This document shows, in pieces, positions 1,301 through 33,019 of a DNA stretch of 47,262 nt; position 1 is the first letter of the stretch; the number at the start of each line of letters is the position of its first letter. This DNA comes from a virus. Taxonomy: Duplodnaviria; Heunggongvirae; Uroviricota; Caudoviricetes. The notes below the pieces were generated by a model. It had not been told where the DNA came from. It saw only the letters and a program-made list of their open reading frames with translations, and did no database searches. The translations under genes were made by a program, and so were the position numbers. Location: IMG/VR virus record IMGVR_UViG_2718217795_000004. The stretch is one strand, 5' to 3'.

Positions 1301-3705
1301 TTAATACTCTCCCCCATTTGTGCCTCAGTTAATTCTTTATGCCAAATGCGTAAATTTTTCACATGACCGAACAGGTGTCTGTTGCCACTGGATGATTGTC
1401 CACCGATATTAATATTACCGGCAGTATAACGTTGCAATGTATGCAGAGACGGGGAGCTGCTACCTAAAATTCCATCAACAACAACCTGCAACTGTTTATC
1501 TTCTGTAAACTTAAAGCCAGTAACAAATTTCCTTTTCTCTCTATTCCCATATGCTTTATATTCTGTTTTTGTTCCTTTGCCATTGGTGATAATTAGCCTT
1601 TTACCACGAGTGGTAAAACCAAAATACATATAACTTTCATCAGAAACTTCAGTCGTCGCCCCTGTAATTGAGATATTAAGCAAACGCGCAGAGCCTTCTA
1701 AATTAGGCATTTCAGAATCCCAATTAACATTAACTTCCATGAGAACACTAACTGGTGGCGTTGCCCAGTTGAAAGGTATAGGTATGATTACCTGGTCACT
1801 TGCTCTCGTGGCACCGACCTCTGTTGTGATGATAAAAGATGAGGCGTTTAGTCCCTTTTCGAATTGAGGGGTTGTTAACATTAATTTATCGCCAGACTTG
1901 ATTGATCGTTGATGTGCTCCAAACTCAAAACGTCCATACATATTTTTTGCTTCTGGTGATTTGTAGGTAAACTCAACACGAATCCATCCATTAGACTCTC
2001 TGAATATGTTATAAGTTGCCGCCTCACCTCCAGAATAACTCAACATATCGCCAGTCTCGCAATCAATATATGCACCAGCGGTCAGTGTGTTACTTGAGCC
2101 ATCGTCGTTAACATATGATATTCTTGGACGCAACGTGATAATACCATCCCCACTTACTTTTTTAACTCTGCAGGATAAAGTAACTGATTCATTTGCCGAA
2201 ACTGAAATAACCCTGGTATATCCAGTAGAAATTAATGTCGCCCTTTCAGTTGTGGATGTTTCTTTAACGCCAAACAAACCATAACTGAAACCATACTCAT
2301 CAACTCCCGTGGTAATAGTTAAGTTAGCAGTGTCATAGTTCCACGATACTGGTGTATTCGTATAAGAAAAAGTATTCGTTCTCTGACCTTCAATGAGCAG
2401 ACCATCTTTTTCAAAACGTGGTTCATTTATCGCTGATTCAGCAAAACACCCAGACTTATCTATATACGTTGCAGTTGACGCCCTGGTAAATGAAACAACC
2501 TTTTCAGACGGCAATGCAATAACATCGTCACCAACTGTGATGCTCTTATATCCAGGAGCAAACCCGGTAATCATATCCAGTGAATCGTTAAACGGTATCC
2601 ACACATCAGGCAACGGCTGTAAGACATATTTATACGGCTCCGCAGCCTGGCTTGCGTACTCTCTGGCTGCATCTTCGCTTGCTTTAGCTGCCGTCTGGCT
2701 TGCTGCCGATGCTTTCGCTGAGTTCGCAGCCGCTGTTTCGCTCACCTTTGCGTTGGTTTCACTGGTTTTTGCTGCTTTTTGGCTGTTGGCTGATGCAGTG
2801 GCAGAAGCAGCCGCCGCGCTTGCAGAGCCAGCTGCAGCACTCTCGCTTTCGGCTGCTGCAGCCTGACTGTTTTTCGCCGCAGTTTCGCTGGCTTTGGCAT
2901 TCGTTTCGCTGGTCTTCGCTGCTGTCTGGCTGGACTTTGCGTTAGTTTCACTCGTCTTCGCAGCTTTCTGGCTGTTAGCCGCAGCAGTTGCTGATCCGGC
3001 TGCTGAAGTCGCAGAACCGGCTGCTGCGCTCTCGCTTTCAGCTGCTGCAGCCTGGCTGTTTTTCGCCGCAGTTTCACTGGCTTTGGCATTCGTTTCGCTG
3101 GTCTTCGCTGCCGTCTGGCTGGACTTTGCGTTGGTTTCGCTCGTCTTTGCGGCTGTCTCACTGTTTTTCGCGTTGGTTTCTGATTTTTTGGCTGCAGTCG
3201 CGGAGTTTGCCGATGCAGTCTGTGAGGCCGCTGCCGCCTGTGCGCTGTTAGCTGCATTCGTTTCTGAGGTTTTCGCCGCGTTCTTCGATGATGCCGCTGC
3301 AGTTTCGGATTTCTTTGCCGCCGCTGCGCTCTGAGAGGCGGCTTCAGCGTTGCGTGCCGCTTCTTCCACCATTTCCTCAAAACGACGCAATGCCTCCGGC
3401 ATGACATCATCTTCCGTCATGGCACCGAGAAAATCATTCAGCGTACCTGGTCTGGAACCTTCATAGACGGTAATGGTTCCGGCATGTGAAGGCGGAAAAC
3501 CTTCAACCAGCAGGGTGACGCTGTACTGGCCATACTCAACATCCATGCTGTAACGCCCGGCTTCATCCGGATTTTCAGAGGCCACTGTGTTGACCAGTAC
3601 CGTGGTGCTGTTACGCTTTGCCTTCAGTTGAATAGTGCAGTTCTGTATTGGTTTTCCCGCACCATCTTTCAGCACACCTGAGATTTTTACTGCTGCCATA
3701 TCCAC
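1297..3705 (-). CDS. stf: side tail fibre protein, Stf-like N-terminus with divergent distal domain
   Basis: N-terminus (AVKISGVLKDG..KPIQNCTIQLKA..RYSMDVEYGQYSV) closely matches lambda Stf; long Ala/Ser/Thr-rich repeat shaft; C-terminal region has a LamG/ConA-like signature (HLFGHVKNLRIWHKELTEAQM). Confidence 0.85.
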   Translation of the reverse strand: MDMAAVKISGVLKDGAGKPIQNCTIQLKAKRNSTTVLVNTVASENPDEAGRYSMDVEYGQYSVTLLVEGFPPSHAGTITVYEGSRPGTLNDFLGAMTEDDVMPEALRRFEEMVEEAARNAEAASQSAAAAKKSETAAASSKNAAKTSETNAANSAQAAAASQTASANSATAAKKSETNAKNSETAAKTSETNAKSSQTAAKTSETNAKASETAAKNSQAAAAESESAAAGSATSAAGSATAAANSQKAAKTSETNAKSSQTAAKTSETNAKASETAAKNSQAAAAESESAAAGSASAAAASATASANSQKAAKTSETNAKVSETAAANSAKASAASQTAAKASEDAAREYASQAAEPYKYVLQPLPDVWIPFNDSLDMITGFAPGYKSITVGDDVIALPSEKVVSFTRASTATYIDKSGCFAESAINEPRFEKDGLLIEGQRTNTFSYTNTPVSWNYDTANLTITTGVDEYGFSYGLFGVKETSTTERATLISTGYTRVISVSANESVTLSCRVKKVSGDGIITLRPRISYVNDDGSSNTLTAGAYIDCETGDMLSYSGGEAATYNIFRESNGWIRVEFTYKSPEAKNMYGRFEFGAHQRSIKSGDKLMLTTPQFEKGLNASSFIITTEVGATRASDQVIIPIPFNWATPPVSVLMEVNVNWDSEMPNLEGSARLLNISITGATTEVSDESYMYFGFTTRGKRLIITNGKGTKTEYKAYGNREKRKFVTGFKFTEDKQLQVVVDGILGSSSPSLHTLQRYTAGNINIGGQSSSGNRHLFGHVKNLRIWHKELTEAQMGESIK
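2790..3180 (-). repeat. tandem duplication of a ~189-bp (63-codon) unit inside the stf shaft
   Basis: Near-identical DNA segments around 2845-2940 and 3035-3130; encodes repeated KTSETNAKSSQTAAKTSETNAKASETAAKNSQAAAAESESAAAGSA. Confidence 0.8.
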
Positions 3706-10301: not shown

Positions 10302-13300
10302 TTAACATTCCCCCATCACGTCGCATATTTAACAGATTGCCCTGCACCCGCTGATCAACCATCCCCATAAGTGCTTTTATTGCCTGAGGGCCAATCTCTC
10401 CATTCTGGCCGTCATTTTGAATAGTGATTTGGTATACAGGGGCATAGGTAATATCTCCGCCTCCATTACCACTTTTACTATTAATAGCTCTGACACCAAG
10501 AGAACCATCGGAAGTTCGTGTTAATGGCATAATGGCTTCCGGTCCAGCCTCACCAAAAACACCAGCCCCTTTTGCAAAAGCAAAAAATTGCGGGGAATCA
10601 TAAATACCGTTCGAATACGTGCTCAATGACGGAGACTCATAAACACCGCCCTTTGCATTCGGAATAAATTTACTAATAGCACTCCCGATAGTTCCTAAAA
10701 TCCCCCCAGAAGAACTGTTACTAATGCTGTCGAAAATCCCAGTAATTGAAGCCTTTAATGCTATTCGACTAAGATCCGAAATCACGGAAGTAGCGAAAGA
10801 ACGAAAATTTGCCTTGCCTGTCGTGACAAAATCACCCAGCGCATCGGTCATCCCATCAAACATCTGAGTCGTGGTTGATTTTATCTGCTCACTGATATCC
10901 TTAGTGTCATCCAGCCAGTTATTGAATCCCTGGGAGGCACCACTAACCCAGTCTCCTGCCTGAATATCGAGCTGCTCGTTTTTCTGTCTGACAATTTCTT
11001 TTTCCCGTTCCAGAGCATCATTCAGAGCCTGCATTTTCTCTTGAAAAACATGATCTGACATTCCACGGGATTTATCTGCATAGTCACGTTCAAGTTGCAG
11101 ACGCTGATTGTTATATCCATGTTCAATCCGCAGTAATTCCTGCTGGCGTTGCTGATTTTTATCGCCAACCCCATAACCAGCAATCTGAATATCATACCCC
11201 TGCTGACGATTATCAATCGAAGCCTGCAATGAATCACGCCATGCTGTTATTTCGGCGGATTCCTTGATTAGCCTGTTATTCTTTTCAATCGCAACATTTT
11301 TCTCCATCAACGCGGTTATTTCTTCCCGGTGTAAGAGAAGCGATTTCTGATCCTGGGTTAATTTCGATGATGGTCGTGACTCTAGGTCGGCAATCCGCTG
11401 ACGCCACTTAACCAGTTCCTGTTCAGAGGAACTTAATTTAACGGTCAACTCAGCTTGTGAACTTAGTAACGCATTCTGTTGATTCAGATGATCAATCATT
11501 CGTTGGGCTGCATCATCAGAATAACCTTTCGCCTTTGGTTGCTTTGGATCTTTATAACGCTCATTTATTTGAGCGATAAGATTATTATATTCTTCCTTTG
11601 AATACTGATTCTTTAGCTTTTCCAGTTTTGCAAGTTCACTAGCTCTCTGCTGCTCCCGGGTCTGATATTGTTTTGAAAAGGCATCTGCTCTCTGTCTGAG
11701 TTCAATTCCTTCCTGTTGTCGCTTGTTGTAATCGTTTATTGATGAATTTAGTACGTCCTGAGCAATTTTTTCTGCTTGAAGTACGCCCAATTGCTGCTTT
11801 AATCGTGCCAGCCTTTTATTTTGAGCTCCGCCATCTCCAATGCCACCTAACCCGAAAACTCCGGGTCGGGTATTTTTTTCTATTTCATCAATTTGACGGA
11901 GAACATCTGAGATTTTTTGATCAAGGGAGGCCTCACGGCCAATATCCAGCATGGAATCCCATGCCCATTTTGCGGAGTCTGCGACAGCTTTCCATGCAGT
12001 CTCAAGATAACCAAGATTTTCTTTAATCTGGTTGGTGCGCTGGATCATTGAGGATGAGTATGCTTCTGTCGCAATGCGGGCGGCCTCCTGCTGGTTCCCT
12101 TCATCCTGTAGCGCCTTAATCTGGTTATAAGTCGCAATTGTCAGAAAATGGTACTGATCATTAAGTTTTGATATGGCACTGACAGGATCCTTTGCAATTT
12201 CATTGAAGTCATTAACCAGTTGTTCGGTTGATATTCCTGTTACTTCGCTCGTTTTTACTATCGCTGTCGTCACTTGCTCCAGCGAACTGCTCGCTACCTT
12301 TCCCGAACGCACAAGCTGGTTTAATACTGCCGCCGCAGCGCCAGTTGTCGAATCAGCCGCATTCCCGGCACGTTGAACTATATCGGCCAATTGCCCGCTG
12401 GTTGTCCCCAACTGATTTCCGGTAAGAATAAGAGATTTATTAAATTCGTCCTGCTCCTGAGAGCCTTTATAGTAAGCCAGCCCTAAGACGCCAACGGCTG
12501 CTGCGGCCAGGGTAAAAGGATTAATTAATCCCAGCACATAAGAACCAACACCTTTGATCGCCGGGCCTATCCCACCGAACATATCTTTTAGCTGGCCGCC
12601 CTGCTGCATTAACACCATAAAAGGCGACTGACCAGTGGACAACCCAACAACAATATCCGTCATTTGTGCAGGCAACATGCGCATAGCAAAAGCCGTTTGT
12701 TTTGCCGACATTCCGGTTTTGCTTAATTGAGATTGAGTAACCTCAAGCTCACTCCGCATAGCACGAAGTTTTCCAGAAAGTTCCTCATACATTTCAGGAG
12801 AGAGCATCCCCTTAGCTTTTGCTTCATTGAGCTGTTTCTGTTGTTCTACCAGACGATTAAAAGCAGTTCCGACAGGGTCAAGTTGAGCAATCAGACGTTG
12901 CAAAGCAGCAACCTGTTCATCATGCGCTTTTGCTGCTTCTCGCTCTGCCTGAGCCTCTCCGGTAAGCTCTCGCCGTGTTTCCTGTATTTTTCGGCTATAA
13001 TTCTCAAACTGAGAACCATTTATTTTCCCGGATGCAAACGCAGCATTAAGTTCATCCTGCTGTTGTTCAAGATTTCTTAGCGCCGCAGCCAGAGGGTCGA
13101 TCTTGTCCAGCATTCTTTGAAAGGCCTGAGCCTGCGCTTCCTGCTGGGCGGCAGCAAGTTTTCCGGCCTTCTCGGCTTCTCTCTGCGCTTGCGCAACCCC
13201 GCTCAATTCCTCTGTGGTTTCATTAAGTTTACGGACAAGAAATTCATATTCTTCTTTATCAATAAGCCCTTTATCGAAAAATTTCTTTAATTCAGAATAG

Positions 13301-24262: not shown

Positions 24263-24514
24263 TTAGTCCTGATTTTTATCCACCCTGAGTAGTTCGCGCA
24301 GAGCAAAGGCATCCCCTTTTCTGGCAAGCTTAAACAATGCCGCTCGTAACTCGGCTTCACCTTTCGCTCTGCCCTTACGGATGGCCGCATAAAAATCTGT
24401 CATTGCTTCCCGATTTTCTTTCAGTCGGTTCAGATCAACATCCAGAACGTCAGCGATTTGTTGTGCAGTCATCCGGCACGCTGCCAGAGACTCGACTTTC
24501 GAATACGGAATCAT
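24263..24514 (-). CDS. small HTH-like DNA-binding protein (83 aa)
   Basis: Helix-turn-helix-like segment (MTAQQIADVLDVDLNRLKENR); immediately upstream of the terminase small subunit. Confidence 0.45.
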   Translation of the reverse strand: MIPYSKVESLAACRMTAQQIADVLDVDLNRLKENREAMTDFYAAIRKGRAKGEAELRAALFKLARKGDAFALRELLRVDKNQD

Positions 24515-25382
24515 TTGTCACCCCCATTGATATGCAGGGTGTCTTCTTCCTGTATTTTTCGTGAAGGATTTTTACTGCAGCGTTGTTCCAGGTGACCTGA
24601 TGGTGAATGCGTTTATGGCTGGCACCCATCAGTGAGATTTTTACGCACGACGGCGCATACATGACGGAGTAAAAACTTTTAACGTAGGTTCCGTAATCCA
24701 GATACAGCTCGGTCATTCCGCCGCTGTTTTTCTGCGTCTGTTTCTGCCCTAACTGGACAGCACCGATCGTCATAAACAATTCACCACAGCGACCGAGATT
24801 CGTGTACGTATTCACATCCTCGTTAATGCGCCCCATGAATGAGAACGGTCGATCAACCGAACAGATAAAGCTGTTCATTGCCTTGCGTTTCACCCACGAA
24901 GCATGGCCGCCATTGTCACCAAGAAAATCCCCGCCCTGCGACATAGCGATGGAAAGCGCGGGTATTGATTCGTAATACGCCAGCATTTCAGAAAGGATCG
25001 CATCCAGTTTCCTTATCGGGAAATAGGCCTGGTCATAGTTGCGATCCACCCGAAACTGGAACTCGTGATAATCATCATCGAGCTGAATGAAGTATTTACA
25101 CCCGACCAGTTTTGCCAGGTCGAAACAGGCATTACGGGCGTAAAAAATTGAGCGGCGGTCACCAAAATTATCGGCTTCGTCAAAACGACTGGCAATATCG
25201 GCTTTGGAAAATACCAGCACCTGTTCACCAAATTCAGCCATGTACTGATGCCGTGTCTTATCTTCATCATCAACAACGATAAAAATTTTCCCGGTATAGC
25301 CAGCACGACGCAACGTCCGGTAAGTCAGAACTTTGTCCGGTCGCCCGTGAGTCAGAATAAAGGCGCAAAAATCATCACGCAT
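24450..25382 (-). CDS. GT-A-fold-like protein (putative nucleotide-sugar transferase; ydaY-position)
   Basis: 310 aa; N-terminal hydrophobic strand (CAFILTHGRP), VVDDED near residue 37 and a DDD (DxD-like) motif near residue 102, spacing typical of GT-A folds; overlaps the ParB-like gene stop. Confidence 0.55.
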   Translation of the reverse strand: MRDDFCAFILTHGRPDKVLTYRTLRRAGYTGKIFIVVDDEDKTRHQYMAEFGEQVLVFSKADIASRFDEADNFGDRRSIFYARNACFDLAKLVGCKYFIQLDDDYHEFQFRVDRNYDQAYFPIRKLDAILSEMLAYYESIPALSIAMSQGGDFLGDNGGHASWVKRKAMNSFICSVDRPFSFMGRINEDVNTYTNLGRCGELFMTIGAVQLGQKQTQKNSGGMTELYLDYGTYVKSFYSVMYAPSCVKISLMGASHKRIHHQVTWNNAAVKILHEKYRKKTPCISMGVTNDSVFESRVSGSVPDDCTTNR

Positions 25383-26163
25383 ATTCCTCCTCCCCGCTAT
25401 GCATGATCGCCACCATGCGCTGCGTCATTCGGACAAATCCATTTTCAATAGCCTGCTGATAATCAATGATCACCAGCGCCGACTCCTCGAAAAGGCACTG
25501 AATTTCAGCGGGGGCATGAGCGTAATAGTCCGCAATTCTGCTGAAATTAAACACCGTGTGACGTTCTGCCGCACACAGGAGGAATTTCTCAATATCAGGA
25601 TCAAGGGACGCCGAACGTATCCGGCTGATCAGCTCCTGAGTTTTCGTATCGTCGTACAGTTCACTGATATCCGGTTTACCGCCCGACGGCTCATAAACAG
25701 GCGTATCAATTTTCGTCGTATACGGCTCCTCCTTATTTCCTGTACCGGGCAAAACATCCGTCAACAGTTCATCAATTTCTGTCGGGCCGAAGCCTGTCAG
25801 GGAGACATCAAAATCAGCATTGATTAGGTCCGACAGCTCCATCCGCAATAGATCTTCATCCCAGCCAGCATTCATCGGTAGGCGATTATCTGCCAGGCGG
25901 TACGCCTTTTTCTGCTCATCCGTCAGGCCAGACAGAACAATGACCGGAACAGAATCCATTTTGAGCATTTCAGCCGCCATAACACGACCGTGACCCGCAA
26001 TAATTTCGCCCTTTTCGTCAATCAGCACCGGATTAGTCCAGCCGAATTGCTTAATACTTTCTACCAGTTGTGCCACCTGCTCAGTACTGTGCGTCCTGGC
26101 GTTGTGCGCATACGGTGACAATTCTTGTAATGGGCGATAGACTATCTTTAATTTCTCGCTCAT
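25375..26163 (-). CDS. ParB-like nuclease-domain protein (ynaK-position)
   Basis: 262 aa; N-terminal ParB/Srx-like segment (ELSPYAHNARTHSTEQVAQLVESIKQFGWTNPVLIDEKGEIIAGHGRVMAA). Confidence 0.75.
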   Translation of the reverse strand: MSEKLKIVYRPLQELSPYAHNARTHSTEQVAQLVESIKQFGWTNPVLIDEKGEIIAGHGRVMAAEMLKMDSVPVIVLSGLTDEQKKAYRLADNRLPMNAGWDEDLLRMELSDLINADFDVSLTGFGPTEIDELLTDVLPGTGNKEEPYTTKIDTPVYEPSGGKPDISELYDDTKTQELISRIRSASLDPDIEKFLLCAAERHTVFNFSRIADYYAHAPAEIQCLFEESALVIIDYQQAIENGFVRMTQRMVAIMHSGEEEYA

Positions 26164-26300: not shown

Positions 26301-27776
26301 TTAGGAGCGCCAAAAAAAACCTGAAAACAATATAATAACAGGATAAATTTCAAGGCGACCAAGAATCATAGCTATGCACATTAAATATTTTGCAATGTCA
26401 TTAAGCACTCCGAATGACGATGCAGTAGCCCCAAAACCTAATCCCATATTATTAATACATGCAGCCACTGTTGCAAATGATGTAAGAAAATCATATCCCA
26501 TACCATTTAACACCAGTATAAAAAACACCGTGAAGAGAGTATAAAGAAAAAAGAAACTCCATACAGACCTCATTACACGATCTGTAACTATCTTCCCTCC
26601 TACATTTACACTCAACAACGCTCTGGGATGAGAAAGCTGATTTATCTCGTGTTTGCTTTGTTTGAAAAGTATAAGAAATCGAAGTGACTTAATTCCACCA
26701 CAAGTTGAACCTATACATCCCCCAAAGAAACTTGACAACAGCAAAAACACTATCGTGTGCGTGGGCCAGTTTGCATAATCCTGCGTAGCTAAACCATTAT
26801 CAGTGAGCATGGAGCTGGCAAGAAAAAACGAATGAATAAAACTTCCATGCAAGTCATACATACCTATATGCCAGACCTGGAAAGAGGTAACAATGATCAC
26901 CCCTAAGGCTATTAACAGAAAGAAACGAAGTTCAATATCTCTGATTAAAGGTTTTATCGTTTTCCTGCTAATAACAATATACCAAAGAGTGAAGTTGAAA
27001 GCCGATAGCAGGGAAAAAGAACCAGCCACCAGCTCAACCAAATAGTTATTAAAATATCCGATACTCTCGCTATGAGTTGAGAAACCACCAAGCGAAACTG
27101 TGGAAATCCCGTGACAAATAGCATCAAACAAAGGCATTCCTGCAAGTCTATAACAGACAATACAAGCAATACCTAATAAAGAATAAGTTATCCACAGTGT
27201 CCGTGACGTATCGGCCAGGCGGGGAGTGAGTTTGTCATCCTTAAATGGCCCCGGCATTTCTGACTGATAAAGCTTTGCACCACCAATACCCAATAATGGC
27301 AATACAGCAACCGCCAGAACAATAACTCCTAAACCACCTATAAAATTTAACTGTGACCGATAGTACAAATATGCCCGAGGTAATGAACTAACATCATCAA
27401 TTACAGTTGCTCCTGTTGTTGTTATTCCAGAAACCCCTTCAAACAGAGCATCAATGAACGTTAAATTAAGTTCTGAGTCAATCCATAAAGGGAATGCACT
27501 AATAACAGAAAACAAAATCCAAAACATTACAATTATAATAAACCCATCACGGGTACGTAATTGAATGCCAGATTTCTTAGTTGTATACCACGCTCCGCCA
27601 CCAATGCAAAAAAATATAACGAAAGTTATAAAGAAAACGAATAGGCTTTTTTCTTTATAAAACAATGCTACAACCATTGGTGGCAACATTGAAAGACTAT
27701 AGAGCCAAACCAGGAACCCACACATATGAGTAACAACTCTTACATGAGATGTATTCATATCTAAATATTCTTTCAA
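26301..27776 (-). CDS. trkG: TrkH/TrkG-family potassium uptake protein
   Basis: 491 aa polytopic membrane protein with repeated GxG-containing pore-like segments; visibly AT-rich gene; matches the known Rac cargo gene trkG. Confidence 0.9.
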   Translation of the reverse strand: MKEYLDMNTSHVRVVTHMCGFLVWLYSLSMLPPMVVALFYKEKSLFVFFITFVIFFCIGGGAWYTTKKSGIQLRTRDGFIIIVMFWILFSVISAFPLWIDSELNLTFIDALFEGVSGITTTGATVIDDVSSLPRAYLYYRSQLNFIGGLGVIVLAVAVLPLLGIGGAKLYQSEMPGPFKDDKLTPRLADTSRTLWITYSLLGIACIVCYRLAGMPLFDAICHGISTVSLGGFSTHSESIGYFNNYLVELVAGSFSLLSAFNFTLWYIVISRKTIKPLIRDIELRFFLLIALGVIIVTSFQVWHIGMYDLHGSFIHSFFLASSMLTDNGLATQDYANWPTHTIVFLLLSSFFGGCIGSTCGGIKSLRFLILFKQSKHEINQLSHPRALLSVNVGGKIVTDRVMRSVWSFFFLYTLFTVFFILVLNGMGYDFLTSFATVAACINNMGLGFGATASSFGVLNDIAKYLMCIAMILGRLEIYPVIILFSGFFWRS

Positions 27777-28890: not shown

Positions 28891-28995
28891 GGATATTTAT
28901 CAGGATTTATCGGTTTCTGAACCCTGGATATGTTTATCTGTCCCGGCCTGTTGAATCAGGCAAGGAATAGTTAAATACAATAGAGAGGATTGTTT

Positions 28996-29268
28996 ATGGA
29001 CAATAGCACCATTTCTCTACAGGAGTTGCTCGACTGCATTTCCAAGCTTCGGGATGATGTAAATGCCCTTACTGTCGCATTTTCATATCTGGCATTCTCA
29101 ATTCCCAAGGAACAAATGCAACCAACACTGGCATCGCTCCAGCTTGAATCACTCAACCCCAAATGGTCCCAGCAACAACAAAATTCTTTCAAGTGGCTGG
29201 CGGTATTACTGGAAGAAAAATATGCTGGTGAAATTACCATTTCGGCGGAGTCTTCAGTGAACCAGTAA
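28996..29268 (+). CDS. hypothetical protein (90 aa), opposite strand inside the lysis cassette
   Basis: ATG at 28996 with GAGAGGA SD; protein-like translation (MDNSTISLQELLDCISKLRDDVNALTVAF...); transcribed against the late operon. Confidence 0.55.
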   Translation: MDNSTISLQELLDCISKLRDDVNALTVAFSYLAFSIPKEQMQPTLASLQLESLNPKWSQQQQNSFKWLAVLLEEKYAGEITISAESSVNQ

Positions 29269-29582: not shown

Positions 29583-29798
29583 TTACTCTCCCCGTGCCGC
29601 CTTACGACGGTCCTCTCTGATTTTGAAATACAGGTTAGTCAGATATGTCAGCAGCCCAAACAGCAGACTCCCCAGCACGCCTATTGCCGCCCACTGAGAC
29701 GGGGAAACCCTGTCCAGCAACTGCAGGAACCAGTAGCCCGTTCCCACCGCTGACGTGGTGTATGACACACCTGTTGTGATTTTTTCCATCTGGTCCAT
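29583..29798 (-). CDS. S: pinholin (phage 21 S-like) with dual-start motif
   Basis: 71 aa from MDQMEK (Met1/Met4); C-terminus [20 protein letters not shown] matches S21 from recall; GGAG SD upstream. Confidence 0.85.
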
Positions 29799-30105
29799 AC
29801 CCCGTCTCCCGTTATCCGGAAGCTGACAACAATAAAAAAGCCACCAGTTAACTACTGATGGCTCTGATAACTCATGCAAGCGTCTCAGACGATCCACTGA
29901 CACTACCGGTGAGTTTAACGATACCTTCCATTTGACTGGCTCACTTTTTATGATGATGCCGGTGTATTTATCTCCAGCACCAGACTTTCTATCTCAACGC
30001 CATACGTTGCATTTTTGGTAATATCCGTCAGCGTCAGTGCATTTAGTCCCACTGCCAGACCGTCTTTTATGGCCTGGAATGCCGGGCCAGTACGATGACG
30101 TAGTA

Positions 30106-30309
30106 TCACTCCGGCTCAGTTGCACCACTGACCACCACATCACCTTCTGCTGCAATCGCCTGCATCAGGGTATAAGGGGTTATGGCCACCGGACTACCAA
30201 ACGGCTGCCAGCCCTCTTTCAGTTTATGTGTCAGCTTTTCCGCAAGATCTGACGGCGCCGCCGCCCTGACAACATCATAGTGTTTAAATGCCATGGTTCT
30301 TTCCACCAT
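30106..30309 (-). CDS. hypothetical small protein (62-67 aa)
   Basis: ORF upstream of the lysis cassette with an AT-rich promoter-like region; start ambiguous (TTG at 30309 or ATG at 30294). Confidence 0.45.
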   Translation of the reverse strand: MVERTMAFKHYDVVRAAAPSDLAEKLTHKLKEGWQPFGSPVAITPYTLMQAIAAEGDVVVSGATEPE

Positions 30310-30554
30310 CTGAAAAATAATTCTTTAAAATACCTGACATGTAATACAGAAAAAACACAAAACCATACCTTAAATAAAAACTTGATTATCAAGCAGATAT
30401 GCATGGATAAACTACAAGACGAGATATAAACCACCCTGCATTTAAATAAACAATAAACAACATCAGAAAAATAATTCTGCTCTATGGTTTACATTCAAAA
30501 ATATCATTTATACTTTTCAGAACATCACCAGCAAGGCATAAACAAGGAAACTAA

Positions 30555-30890
30555 ATGAAGTGGATTGTGATTGATACAGTTATCCAGCCATCATGCGGAA
30601 TATCTTTTTCAGTCATATGGAGTAAAGTAAAATTAATAATCTGGTATCAATCGGATGCTTTCTTACCTCCTGAAAGTATATTTACACTGACTCACACAGG
30701 TATCATGCTCAATAACAAAGTGCTACCTGTAACCATTTACAACGTAGTACCATTCAATAAAACATTCTGGAATTTAATCAAAAACAGCCAGGAATGCCCT
30801 ACAAATACAGATAACGTATTGAATGAATGCTTTAATAACCGTTGCATTCTGCAAATATGTCCTTATGGACTAAAACAACAAAGTCCATAA
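30555..30890 (+). CDS. hypothetical protein (111 aa), AT-rich moron
   Basis: ATG with AAGGAA SD; AT-rich; followed by an 11-bp perfect inverted repeat and a GC hairpin. Confidence 0.45.
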
Positions 30891-30907
30891 GGAGTTTACT
30901 CACATCT

Positions 30908-30946
30908 GACAAAATCAATATAAACAGCCCCTCCGGAGAGGGGCTG
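30908..30946 (-). terminator. GC-rich hairpin terminator (bidirectional-looking)
   Basis: Stem AGCCCCTC / GAGGGGCT with loop CGGA; on the minus strand followed by TTTATATTGATTTTG. Confidence 0.5.
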
Positions 30947-31337
30947 GAGAGTGGCGCTATGTGCCATTGCATGGTGCCGGGTGCCTCCCGGTGAATTCAG
31001 TACCAGCACCTGAATCCGCGATTATCCCATATACCTACTCGCTGATTGCCCCTCCGCACAGGGGGATTCACCATGCCAGTTTCTTTTAACAAACTCCCCG
31101 CAAACCAGACAACAGTCAACCGCCTGAATTGTGAAGTATTTAAAAATTTCTCCCGCTAACTGATACCCGGCTAACAGTCTGGCGTTTTCTTTTTCAGCAA
31201 CGGGAAAGCAACAACCACCACACCCGCCACCAGCACACCGTCAGCCAGCACTGACATTATCCGGCTGCTGCAATGCCACTCACAAAAACAGTAAGCAATC
31301 ACTTTTTACCGTAACAAGTGATAATCCAGATATGTAT

Positions 31338-31691
31338 CTACCCCAGATGAGTAATCCGAAGTTCATCCATACCACAGGTACTGGCTATTCTGTTGTACTC
31401 CTGAACAAGAGCAAATAATTCTGAATTAGCAACCATGAACTCATCGCAAACCCTCTGTATAGCATCACTATTCAGAATAATAACGTCTCTTCCCGAAAGA
31501 CGATCAGGAGTACAGAACAAAACTGTCAAACGGCTGAAGGCCTTTGCTCGTCCTGCATTGACTATATCAATACGCTGCCTAAGGATGAAACACCCCGACG
31601 CCTCATCAATATTCACTCTACCCACACCATATGAATGATAAATATTTAATGCTGAAAAAACCATTAGACCGTATAACAAACACTCAATCAA
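31338..31691 (-). CDS. hypothetical protein (108-117 aa)
   Basis: ORF in the late operon between the tRNAs and lysis genes; weak SD, AT-rich; coding status uncertain. Confidence 0.35.
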   Translation of the reverse strand: MIECLLYGLMVFSALNIYHSYGVGRVNIDEASGCFILRQRIDIVNAGRAKAFSRLTVLFCTPDRLSGRDVIILNSDAIQRVCDEFMVANSELFALVQEYNRIASTCGMDELRITHLG

Positions 31692-31804
31692 TACTTAACA
31701 GAACTTTTATTTTTGACAAACATAAAATATTTTCAACAATATCCTGAGCCAGGTATATTTCAGTATAAGGCTCTGCCGGAAGGAATCTGGAAGAATGAAT
31801 ATAG

Positions 31805-31878
31805 CGCGCTGTACTGGATTCGAACCAGTGACCGATTGCTTAGAAGGCAATTGCTCTGTCCGGCTGAGCTAACAACGC
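31805..31878 (-). tRNA. tRNA-Arg (anticodon UCU)
   Basis: Hand-folded cloverleaf: acceptor GCGTTGT/ACAGCGC, D-stem GCTC/GAGC, anticodon stem ATTGC/GCAAT with loop CTTCTAA, T-arm ACTGG-TTCGAAT-CCAGT; no encoded CCA. Confidence 0.8.
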
Positions 31879-31889
31879 TGAATACCGAT

Positions 31890-31969
31890 AATGGACCGCC
31901 ATCGGGGACCCGCCCCCGCACCAACAACCCTGTTATCGTGTCGTCTGCTCTTCCTGATAAGCTAATGGC
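31890..31969 (-). other. degenerate tRNA-like element (argN-position pseudo-tRNA?)
   Basis: Perfect 7-bp acceptor pairing (CCGCCAT/ATGGCGG) with 3' TCCA and a D-arm-like stem, but anticodon and T arms do not fold canonically. Confidence 0.35.
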
Positions 31970-31978
31970 GGTTTGTGA

Positions 31979-32054
31979 TGGTGGCCCTTGCTGGATTTGA
32001 ACCAGCGACCTGGCGATTATGAGTCGCTCGCTCTCACCACTGAGCTAAAGGGCC
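31979..32054 (-). tRNA. tRNA-Ile2 (anticodon CAU, ileX/ileZ-like)
   Basis: Cloverleaf with acceptor GGCCCTT/AAGGGCC, anticodon loop CTCATAA, T-arm GCTGG-TTCAAAT-CCAGC, encoded CCA; closely resembles E. coli ileX from recall rather than a Met tRNA. Confidence 0.8.
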
Positions 32055-32090
32055 GGGAGCAGAATAATAACGGTCCGTAATTAATTCCGC

Positions 32091-32116
32091 AATAAAAAAC
32101 CCGCTCGGCGGCGGGT
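32091..32116 (-). terminator. tR'-like intrinsic terminator
   Basis: Minus-strand ACCCGC-CGCCGA-GCGGGT stem-loop followed by TTTTTTATT, about 65 nt downstream of the predicted late start. Confidence 0.6.
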
Positions 32117-32164
32117 TGTAGAAACTCTTCTAACGTCAGGCATAAAAAGCCCATTGTTATGACG

Positions 32165-32192
32165 AATTTACCACAGATTCCGGAAAAATCAA
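32165..32192 (-). promoter_or_regulatory. pR'-like late promoter with qut-like region
   Basis: -35 TTGATT, 16-nt spacer, -10 TAAATT just after the Q stop; downstream CGTCATAACAATGGG resembles the lambda pR' initial transcribed/pause region. Confidence 0.5.
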
Positions 32193-32197
32193 CCTTG

Positions 32198-33019
32198 TTA
32201 CCTAGTTACCTTTTTTAACTGCCGCTCAGCCCATGCTTCTTCAATATCAAACCGGGTCACCAGCGCATCATAGAATTTCTTAACTGTTTTTTCCCATGAC
32301 GCGCGTGTTATCTGGTTTGTCACCTCGCATATAGCATTAAATGCCTCCGTTGATGGTAGTCTTTCATAGCCACGACCACCACAACGCTGGCAGTCTCTGA
32401 TAACAGGCATACCACGTTTTACCGACTCTTCACGATGAATGGCGACACCACGCCCACGGCAATCCTTACAGGCGGTGGAAACCTCACCCTTTCCGCCACA
32501 CTCCGGACAGGCAACTTTTACCACCTCCCTGACTTTTTTCCATTCTTCCCAGTAAGACGAATACACACCTTTCGTACACTTTGCCCATACCGGCGGCTTA
32601 CCATCCGGATACTGGACCTTGTTTGTAAAAACTACGCTTTCAATAAATTTTTCCCCATAGCAACAAGGGCACTGCTTTTTACTCGCTGCGCTACGGGCAT
32701 AATCCTCAAAAGCGTACGAAGCCATAATGCGCATCACTACCGGTTTTATTTCTGCCGGAAGTTTTCTCAACGCCGCCACACGATCGCACCGACTGAGTGC
32801 ATAATCTGCCAGTAATTCTGTTGCCCGCGCCCTGTCATTCATACTGATGCCCATTTTCCCCAGGAACGCAGAAAAACCCATCTCAGCCCGATTCTGTGTC
32901 ATGCCCTGCGCGGCCATCACATCAGTGATACTCAGCGCATCTTTTGACGTTGAGGCCGATGCATCGGTCAGGCCAGGGGATTTTGGGGAGTAGTATTTCG
33001 GTAAATCTTCCAGTTTCAT
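32198..33019 (-). CDS. Q: late antiterminator Q (lambda Q family)
   Basis: 273 aa; lambda-Q-like motifs (SPKSP, DVMAAQGM, Cys-rich zinc finger CPECGGKG..CKDCRGRG, C-terminal ...YDALVTR). Confidence 0.85.
   Translation of the reverse strand: MKLEDLPKYYSPKSPGLTDASASTSKDALSITDVMAAQGMTQNRAEMGFSAFLGKMGISMNDRARATELLADYALSRCDRVAALRKLPAEIKPVVMRIMASYAFEDYARSAASKKQCPCCYGEKFIESVVFTNKVQYPDGKPPVWAKCTKGVYSSYWEEWKKVREVVKVACPECGGKGEVSTACKDCRGRGVAIHREESVKRGMPVIRDCQRCGGRGYERLPSTEAFNAICEVTNQITRASWEKTVKKFYDALVTRFDIEEAWAERQLKKVTR

Follow-up and report, generated by a model that had tools for sequence, protein, structure and literature searches.

The interval 30106-31691 of the window (the whole stretch of viral DNA analysed here, 47,262 nt) very probably belongs to an intact lambdoid E. 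coli prophage of the Rac type, as the variable cargo zone with which its late operon begins, and all of its parts are of known kinds. Besides the gene iraL and the sRNA STnc100, it contains an esterase gene that is broken and two small phage genes that are conserved. This cargo is ordinary, widespread and already known, not new. An earlier reading, made from the letters alone (the sequence-only reading), had listed three ORFs here, and all three could be confirmed at their positions and on their strands: 30106-30309 (-, 67 aa), 30555-30890 (+, 111 aa) and 31338-31691 (-, 117 aa, TTG start). That they are uncharacterised and without homologues, as was also claimed, is not true for any of them. 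The features of the interval and its flanks are, in the direction of late transcription:

32198-33019, - strand, Q antiterminator (Pfam Antiterm)
32098-32192, - strand, putative pR'-like late promoter and tR'-like intrinsic terminator, directly downstream of Q
31979-32054, - strand, tRNA with CAT anticodon, ileZ-type (ARAGORN; Rfam tRNA, 72.5 bits; an identical gene is tRNA-Ile in PGAP)
31895-31971, - strand, degenerate argN-type tRNA-Arg(TCG) (alignment with CFT073)
31804-31878, - strand, tRNA-Arg(TCT), argO-type (ARAGORN and Rfam)
31338-31616, - strand, most likely a 92-aa CDS with GTG start, family phrog_2873 (PHROG profile, homologue starts)
31171-31302, - strand, DUF3927 small membrane protein, 43 aa (Pfam PF13064)
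30916-31105, - strand, sRNA STnc100, RF02076 (Rfam, 132.4 bits, E 3e-30)
30555-30890, + strand, iraL, predicted RssB anti-adaptor of the IraM/IraL family, 111 aa (NCBIfam NF007393)
30488-30554, + strand, predicted iraL promoter with 5' UTR (TTTACA 30488-30493, 17-nt spacer, TACTTT 30511-30516)
30106-30309, - strand, DUF1737 ORF, 67 aa, N-terminal remnant of the nanS-p/yjhS esterase (Pfam DUF1737, E 1e-16)
29948-30109, - strand, 53-aa ORF, C-terminal remnant of nanS-p in another frame (phrog_143, 582-632 of 634)
29583-29798, - strand, class II (P21 S-type) holin (Pfam Phage_holin_2_1, E 4e-32)

The slot between Q with its pR'/tR' region and the tRNAs on one side and the holin on the other is real. 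The late genes of the phage lie on the - strand in the order Q, terminator, tRNAs, holin, lysozyme and Rz, and only the ORF 30555-30890 runs in the opposite direction, as had been noticed earlier. The hexamers of the putative late promoter, TTGATT (32192-32187) and TAAATT (32170-32165) with a 16-nt spacer, were read by eye and are below the scan threshold; the tR'-like hairpin at 32098-32117 was found by the terminator scan. From 32193 to 32094 the sequence shares 88% identity with what follows Q in a Stx2a phage (L009). The proposed ileZ-argN-argO-type tRNA set is present in part: the CAT and TCT genes are intact, but in the tRNA-Arg(TCG) between them about 40 nt in the middle are scrambled in comparison to CFT073, where the gene is intact, and neither ARAGORN nor Rfam calls a tRNA at 31895-31971 in the window. 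The lower boundary of the slot is the holin gene, the first of the lysis cassette, to which the PGAP holin gene of an identical locus (L001) maps; its product is 93-96% identical to the holins of Stx2 phages. The lysis genes encode a P21-type holin, YdfR, lysozyme and Rz. What lies in the zone differs among related phages, which carry stx2AB, TolA-C-domain genes, iraL or iraM, and a full or deleted nanS-p.

The interval was described as markedly AT-rich, which applies to some of its parts. In comparison to the window (47.8% GC) the whole interval has 41.5% GC, iraL with its promoter 31.8% and, more mildly, the 117-aa ORF 41%, but the DUF1737 ORF (53%), STnc100 (55%) and DUF3927 (52%) are not AT-rich. 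Likewise only one half of the proposed promoter-like and terminator-like signals is borne out by the counts: six promoter-like sites are not above chance (5.7 expected), but the eight terminator-like sites are enriched (2.6 +/- 1.5 expected).

The ORF in the middle is iraL, a gene published in 2014 (Hryckowian et al., PMC4045071). Its product matches NCBIfam NF007393 with 162 bits (cut-off 121) over residues 1-110. It is identical to IraL of CFT073 (c1429) in 109 of 111 aa (98%), differing by V/I at residue 25 and I/T at residue 98, and among 5426 complete E. coli genomes 1445 carry iraL. In K-12 the same family is represented by IraM (b1160; PDB 8twd, E 9e-32), with 63% identity over 107 aa; both are RssB anti-adaptors adjoining prophage DNA. 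In contrast to iraL, the context of iraM is the edge of e14, and IraL is longer by four C-terminal residues; regulation and RssB-binding mode are also reported to differ between the two (PMC4045071).

RssB binding and a longer RpoS half-life were shown just for the genes of CFT073 and S. sonnei; in CFT073 IraL interacts with RssB, and the RpoS half-life is roughly halved in an iraL deletion mutant (PMC4045071). From the 98%-identical CFT073 gene we infer that 30555-30890 encodes an RssB anti-adaptor which stabilises RpoS. IraL would bind the adaptor RssB and block the delivery of RpoS to ClpXP, so that RpoS would go up in growing lysogens. The lysogen harbours iraL, whose known effect in growing cells is a higher RpoS level and, with it, a change in stress resistance. 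The finding is of value for annotation and leaves current understanding unchanged.

The surroundings of the gene are also those known from CFT073. Over 2.6 kb (32096-29500) the window is 98% identical to the potB prophage of that strain, in which iraL was studied, and iraL has the same neighbours there, namely DUF3927, the STnc100 region, the DUF1737 stub and the holin. CFT073 departs from the window in that an IS200C follows tR' and the third tRNA is intact, and the rest of the prophage differs, since the one in the window is Rac-type with trkG and the one in CFT073 is located at potB. The published 5' end of iraL (ACATCACCAGCAAGG...) is present upstream of 30555-30890, and the match to the mRNA end mapped by 5'RACE in CFT073 (PMC4045071) places the transcription start at 30522, with a 5' UTR of 33 nt. 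This leader differs from that of CFT073 in two bases; both hexamers of the promoter, which is predicted from sequence, are the same.

iraL is a classic moron: a module of about 600 bp with 32% GC that is oriented against late transcription and has its own sigma-70 promoter. Besides its low GC (31.8% against 47.8%) it shows presence and absence between colinear phages. Phage Min27 lacks the module and has 262 bp instead of the 672 bp of the window, being otherwise colinear; at the position of iraL, phage Stx2_EH1910 contains a 73%-identical iraM-like gene. Of the proposed lysogenic-conversion cargo this one ORF, with its own promoter, is genuine. Upon induction, polymerase modified by Q would transcribe antisense across iraL, which should switch the gene off.

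Two suggestions on the expression of iraL were dropped. A bidirectional terminator common to iraL and STnc100 was considered, but no clear + strand terminator follows iraL: the only hairpin there (30925-30946) has its T-run on the - strand. Control of iraM-type genes by AppY, a prophage AraC regulator, was also considered, but according to the published report iraM expression is unchanged by AppY.

Within the interval the sequence-only reading had overlooked STnc100 at 30916-31105 and the DUF3927 gene at 31171-31302. The sRNA is matched in full length (model positions 1-206) at 132.4 bits against a gathering score of 47, and its fold has a z-score of -2.3. Its 3' end coincides with the intrinsic terminator 30925-30946. 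The published qPCR primers for STnc100 match here (PMC12370729), and in Stx2 phages the sRNA is reported to be located 75 nt downstream of stx2 (PMC12370729). A relationship to PasD has been reported in a preprint (Zhu et al. 2026). Terminal hairpin and location in a prophage late region are shared with the STnc100 of Stx phages, and nothing notable differs. A + strand "hypothetical protein" pseudogene annotated by PGAP at about 30961-31086 lies antisense inside STnc100 and is probably spurious.

The first ORF is what is left of an ordinary late-region gene, nanS-p. Residues 6-67 of the DUF1737 ORF are 90% identical to residues 1-62 of the YjhS protein (632 aa) of a Stx2a phage, and the ORF corresponds to positions 1-58 of the 634 positions of phrog_143. 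The other end of the gene lies just outside the interval, at 29948-30109, and had been overlooked. This 53-aa ORF is 83% identical (tblastn) to the 3' end of yjhS, annotated as "9-O-acetyl-N-acetylneuraminic acid deacetylase" in Stx1a phages, and matches YjhS residues 596-626. A central SASA catalytic domain in a single reading frame is absent; only YjhS residues 1-62 and 596-626 are represented, in different frames. As judged from these alignments, the catalytic body of a nanS-p sialate O-acetylesterase gene is missing here and the two ORFs are its remaining ends; what is left is hence a remnant, a non-functional member of its family.

Could the 67-aa DUF1737 ORF instead be a functional stand-alone small protein? 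It matches phrog_2036 from end to end (67/67, E 4e-49), and its exact sequence recurs on 1000 contigs or more and falls in a cluster with 691 members; one widely spread prophage lineage may, however, suffice to explain this abundance. PGAP flags the ORF as a pseudogene without C-terminus, and the alignment to residues 1-62 of a 632-aa esterase is followed by the C-terminal fragment in another frame. We therefore consider a stand-alone protein rather unlikely, with about one chance in four, and treat the ORF as a remnant of nanS-p.

It was further proposed that the interval occupies exactly the position of the toxin genes in Stx phages. The flanks are indeed colinear with the Stx2a phage Stx2_EH1910, with identities of 88% for the tRNAs, 71% for STnc100-iraM-nanS start and 93% for the holin. 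Min27 shares with it and the window the colinear arrangement of the post-Q region, tRNAs, STnc100, the DUF1737 start of nanS-p and the holin; the opposite-strand iraM-like gene is found in Stx2_EH1910 only. However, stx2AB (L009, 3133-4500) replaces exactly the segment 31135-31793 of the window, between flanks of 88% and 71% identity, and therefore the toxin slot proper holds only the 92-aa gene (the third ORF) and DUF3927. No similarity to stxA or stxB was found in this segment, the ORFs there being phrog_2873 and DUF3927. iraL is separate from the stx slot, as an AT-rich opposite-strand moron between STnc100 and nanS-p. In contrast to the Stx2a phages, the window thus has no toxin and carries the 92-aa gene and DUF3927 at the stx2AB place, its nanS-p is reduced to two stubs and its third tRNA is degenerate. 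The comparison places iraL-type genes and STnc100 on one backbone with the Shiga-toxin cassette.

The ORF 31338-31691 is most likely real but overextended, to judge from its homologues, and the conserved CDS would be 31338-31616 with 92 aa; the first 75 nt at the 5' end of the ORF are probably not coding. Residues 10-117 of the 117-aa ORF match positions 1-108 of the 108 positions of phrog_2873 (E 6.6e-70), a conserved family of the phage late region with homologues in Citrobacter. The 21 representative homologues of the 92-aa protein include proteins of 91-95 aa that start at the position equivalent to 31616, with identities of 33-64%, those at 33-40% among them. The position of the Shine-Dalgarno sequence before GTG 31616 is conserved, and two of the related loci (L006 and L007) have in-frame stops upstream. 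A locus scan with a narrower alignment of the family returned three genome loci.

One could argue that 31338-31691 is no gene at all but a frame open by chance, either in a non-coding leader that is conserved or in an RNA that follows the tRNAs and is processed. The gene has no PGAP annotation in two reference genomes, and the longest frame begins with TTG at 31691 without a Shine-Dalgarno sequence. The ORF is kept at 65% nucleotide identity with one in-frame indel, and the excess of third-position differences (35/33/54 for the three codon positions) is modest. The first 23 residues of the 117-aa model are of low confidence, but for the 92-aa core AF2 predicts a helical hairpin with confidence (pLDDT 87.4), and Rfam gives nothing at E<=1 in 31338-31691. 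As homologues down to 33% identity retain length, start and Shine-Dalgarno site and the frame belongs to phrog_2873, a non-coding origin is very improbable, and the 92-aa CDS is retained.

Neither Pfam, NCBIfam nor PADLOC gave a match for the 117/92-aa protein. A PDB profile search revealed weak matches only (best UPF0335/GapR, E 0.022), and the fold search gave no match beyond generic helical hairpins.

The three ORFs are highly unlikely to be novel, uncharacterised cargo for lysogenic conversion or anti-phage defence. The variability of the zone and the lack of a known function for the 92-aa protein and DUF3927 would agree with such a role, but iraL is published and 98% identical, and the DUF1737 ORF is a nanS-p remnant, which refutes novel cargo for these two ORFs; the third belongs to an ordinary conserved lambdoid late-region family (phrog_2873), not to strain-specific cargo. 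As for defence, no meaningful PADLOC match was found: iraL, the 117-aa ORF, DUF3927 and the 53-aa ORF gave none, and the DUF1737 stub gave a marginal one (E 0.0097).

The neighbour of the 92-aa gene, DUF3927, matches PF13064 with 95.6 bits against a gathering cut-off of 25. It belongs to phrog_1470 ("TciB-like"), is annotated by PGAP and is syntenic with the 92-aa family and the holin in Citrobacter. The 92-aa gene, DUF3927 and STnc100 are most likely transcribed from pR' once Q overrides tR'. Helical hairpins usually oligomerise or bind partners. The 92-aa protein may do so too and act together with the adjoining membrane peptide late in infection. The pair lies in the place of stx2AB and is conserved as far as Citrobacter, and one might speculate on an unstudied late-expressed two-part module (acting at the membrane on lysis timing, superinfection or colicin entry) or an AraC-linked anti-activator, at which the arrangement in the related locus L002 hints, though we give this a low probability.

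The narrower suggestion that the 92-aa hairpin is a small anti-activator, comparable to the AraC negative regulators, which has no role in lysis but binds an AraC-type regulator of a prophage, or else some other protein of the host, is improbable as well. In one divergent relative (L002) an AraC-family gene (HTH_18, phrog_1450) is followed after 21 bp by a 56%-identical homologue, and small helical hairpins are typical protein binders. However, no AraC gene adjoins in the window, CFT073, mEp460, Citrobacter or L006, what constantly accompanies the gene is DUF3927 and the lysis genes, and comparisons of sequence and profile did not connect it to any family of regulators. A role as ANR-like AraC partner, seen at a single locus and without sequence link, was therefore kept only as a low-probability rival.

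In non-Stx relatives it is this pair that fills the toxin slot; both genes are small, very common and unstudied, and standard pipelines miss one of them. In mEp460 and Citrobacter braakii the pair is found in the same order upstream of the lysis cassette. In contrast to the window, a TerB-domain gene lies between the 92-aa family gene and DUF3927 in Citrobacter and L006, and in L002 the pair is preceded by the AraC-family gene.

The region 30106-31691 is already known, and it carries cargo at the Stx position that is built from known or ordinary elements. The sequence-only reading was right about the cargo, but not in regarding it as uncharacterised. The following features were found in late-transcription order.

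32198-33019, minus strand: Q antiterminator (Pfam Antiterm, E 6e-55)
After Q, minus strand: putative pR'-like promoter, read from the sequence
32098-32117, minus strand: intrinsic terminator (terminator scan)
31979-32054, minus strand: tRNA, CAT anticodon
31895-31971, minus strand: degenerate argN-type tRNA-Arg(TCG), middle member of the usual ileZ-argN-argO trio
31804-31878, minus strand: tRNA-Arg(TCT)
31338-31691, minus strand: third ORF, with the 92-aa gene
31171-31302, minus strand: DUF3927 membrane peptide, 43 aa (95.6 bits; phrog_1470)
30916-31105, minus strand: sRNA STnc100 (132 bits, gathering score 47)
30925-30946, minus strand: terminator closing STnc100 (terminator scan)
30555-30890, plus strand: middle ORF, iraL
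30106-30309, minus strand: first ORF, DUF1737 stub
Downstream of the three ORFs, minus strand: lysis cassette (P21-type holin, YdfR, lysozyme, Rz/Rz1)
26301-27776, minus strand: trkG, just after Rz (Pfam TrkH, 483 bits; 37.7% GC)
25375-26163, minus strand: ParB_N-domain protein, between trkG and the terminase genes
24450-25382, minus strand: TET-associated-type glycosyltransferase (Pfam TAGT; phrog_842 'beta-glucosyl-HMC-alpha-glucosyltransferase')

As Q, terminator, tRNAs, ORFs and lysis genes follow each other in this order, the earlier description of the slot is right, and the three proposed ORFs, between tRNAs and lysis genes, are present with these coordinates and strands. The tRNA-Arg(TCG) is called neither by ARAGORN nor by Rfam, and its central ~40 nt are unlike the intact CFT073 copy. 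Within Q lies a zinc-finger segment of the DnaJ type, CXXCXGXG (Pfam DnaJ_CXXCXGXG, E 8.5e-07, under cut-off), and quuQ upstream of stx2 in phage Stx2_EH1910 has the same length as the Q gene of the window.

The GC content is 41.5% in the region and 47.8% in the window, mainly due to 30310-30900 (31.8%) with a milder contribution of the 117-aa third ORF (41%). The term 'markedly AT-rich' is therefore appropriate for the iraL segment and mildly for the third ORF, but not for the DUF1737 ORF (53% GC), STnc100 (55%) and DUF3927 (52%). Of the signals claimed for the region, the terminator-like sites are enriched (8 versus 2.6 +/- 1.5 expected), whereas promoter-like consensus sites occur about as often as chance predicts (6 versus 5.7).

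The toxin position was located by BLAST of the window against the Stx2a phage Stx2_EH1910 (L009). Post-Q region and tRNAs are each 88% identical, the holins 93%. Window 31135-31793 has no identity to L009 3133-4500, which holds stx2A and stx2B, while STnc100, the iraM-like gene and the nanS-p start are 71% identical; the nanS-p body is present in Stx2_EH1910 and deleted from the window. By this alignment only the 92-aa gene and DUF3927 occupy the toxin position, and iraL and the DUF1737 stub are backbone common to some Stx phages. The three ORFs had all been assigned to the exact Stx slot, which fits the third one but not the other two, outside the replaced segment.

The 92-aa/DUF3927 pair, whose role is the single point beyond what is already known of the region, recurs 5' of the lysis cassette in Citrobacter braakii and in one more contig, in both of which a TerB-domain gene separates the two genes. 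In phage mEp460_ev081 (L003) the pair is followed by two TolA C-terminal-domain genes (2528-3502) replacing iraL and the nanS-p remnant. Possible decoys against colicins or filamentous phages, these genes of a close relative are a sign of the variability of this zone. In L002, an assembly contig of 1.7 kb, the homologue (56% identical to the 92-aa gene) is preceded at a distance of 21 bp by an AraC-family gene (164-889; HTH_18, phrog_1450, 241 aa) and followed by an STnc100 copy.

The third ORF is not annotated by PGAP and matches no Pfam or NCBIfam model, but does match phrog_2873 (E 7e-70). Its close relatives are mostly near-identical E. coli and Shigella proteins, with two at 56% identity, and an exhaustive profile search revealed 21 representative homologues, including 91-95-aa proteins at 33-40% identity. 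The 56% relative is 65% identical in nucleotides and preserves the reading frame, with a single in-frame indel; the differences by codon position are 35/33/54. The ORF is a real gene with homologues, and its start had probably been drawn too far upstream. The 91-95-aa homologues start at about residue 26 of the 117-aa ORF; 5' of a conserved GTG (31616) the window has GTGGG where relatives have AGGAG or AAGGG; and in-frame stops are found 10 and 3 codons upstream of the GTG in two other loci with relatives (L006 and L007, respectively). These observations point to a CDS at 31338-31616 (minus strand, 92 aa). AlphaFold with a diverse alignment confidently predicts a hairpin of two helices, 3-34 and 50-81 (pLDDT 87.4), and the first 23 residues of the modelled 117-aa version are unstructured. 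Fold and profile searches with the protein gave nothing beyond generic or designed helical hairpins; it presumably oligomerises or binds a partner.

The middle ORF is identified by sequence as iraL, a known and characterised lysogenic-conversion gene (c1429 in the uropathogenic strain CFT073, PMC12890032). It passes the NCBIfam IraM model (162 bits, cut-off 121), shares 63% identity with K-12 IraM and also hits 8twd, a solved IraM chain. The CFT073 potB prophage product, named 'anti-adapter protein IraM', is identical in 109 of 111 aa. This homologue, not recognised in the earlier reading, has a published function: IraL interacts with RssB, and iraL deletion lowers log-phase RpoS level and half-life (PMC4045071). 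The 5'RACE end of the CFT073 iraL mRNA, ACATCACCAGCAAGGCATAAACAAGGAAAC... (PMC4045071), is found in the window at 30522, preceded by TTTACA-17-TACTTT with both hexamers identical to CFT073. Identity to that prophage (L008) is 98% across the 2.6 kb of window 32096-29500, apart from an IS200C transposase (11701-12159) between tR' and tRNAs in CFT073. With its AT-rich DNA, opposite strand, own promoter and variable presence among colinear phages iraL is a true moron: STnc100 homology and nanS-p start are 262 bp apart in Stx2 phage Min27 but 672 bp in the window, while Stx2_EH1910 has the iraM-like gene (73% identical) in the same place and orientation. Among 5426 complete E. coli genomes, 1445 have the gene with its promoter (>90% identity).

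DUF3927 and STnc100, between the third and middle ORFs, had been missed. Sequence homologous to STnc100 occurs in 286 phage records, mostly of Stx2 phages. The sRNA is reported to lie 75 nt downstream of stx2 in Stx2 phages and to be detectable in outer membrane vesicles (PMC12370729), and a preprint (10.64898/2026.05.13.724894) connects it with PasD. In identical genomes PGAP calls a partial 'hypothetical protein' pseudogene at ~30961-31089 (plus strand), antisense within STnc100, which is probably an annotation artefact.

In the lysogen, iraL would be transcribed from its own promoter and IraL would sequester RssB; this would protect RpoS from ClpXP and keep stress-response genes expressed in growing cells, as was shown elsewhere. 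Upon induction, Q-modified polymerase would pass tR' and transcribe tRNAs, 92-aa gene, DUF3927 and STnc100, and then run through the STnc100 terminator and across iraL in antisense into the lysis genes.

The first ORF, for which no obvious homologues had been seen, is a DUF1737 domain, 90% identical to the start (residues 1-62) of YjhS/NanS-p, the 632-aa esterase of Stx2_EH1910. PGAP labels it a pseudogene without C-terminus. The adjacent ORF 29948-30109 (minus strand), in a different frame, matches positions 582-632 of 634 in phrog_143 (the final ~50) and the yjhS 3' end of Stx1a phages ('9-O-acetyl-N-acetylneuraminic acid deacetylase'). Together they are the remnant of a nanS-p gene without the SASA catalytic body. 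The 67-aa product is very common in exactly this form and has a PHROG to itself, so that it may retain a residual role.

Defence cargo, also proposed, found no support: PADLOC models gave no meaningful match among the proteins of the region, with a marginal E of 0.0097 on the DUF1737 stub. The region is identical or nearly so in hundreds of sequenced E. coli; a 2.3-kb query spanning the slot (29900-32200) is covered to at least 80% in 858 genomes. In E. coli genome H1 an IS3 element lies inside the matched region.

A second moron is trkG, which marks an intact Rac-type prophage; integrase and RecE-type exonuclease are encoded at the opposite end of the element. K-12 Rac retains rzpR-trkG but is not known to have the Q-to-lysis region present in the window. 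The ParB_N and TAGT genes (24450-26163) may form a DNA-modification module. Within the lysis cassette, a 92-aa ORF on the opposite strand (28990-29268, plus) overlaps the ydfR 3' end where GC dips locally. This ORF has a match in phrog_2411 (E 5e-59, unknown function), and its CFT073 counterpart is annotated by PGAP.
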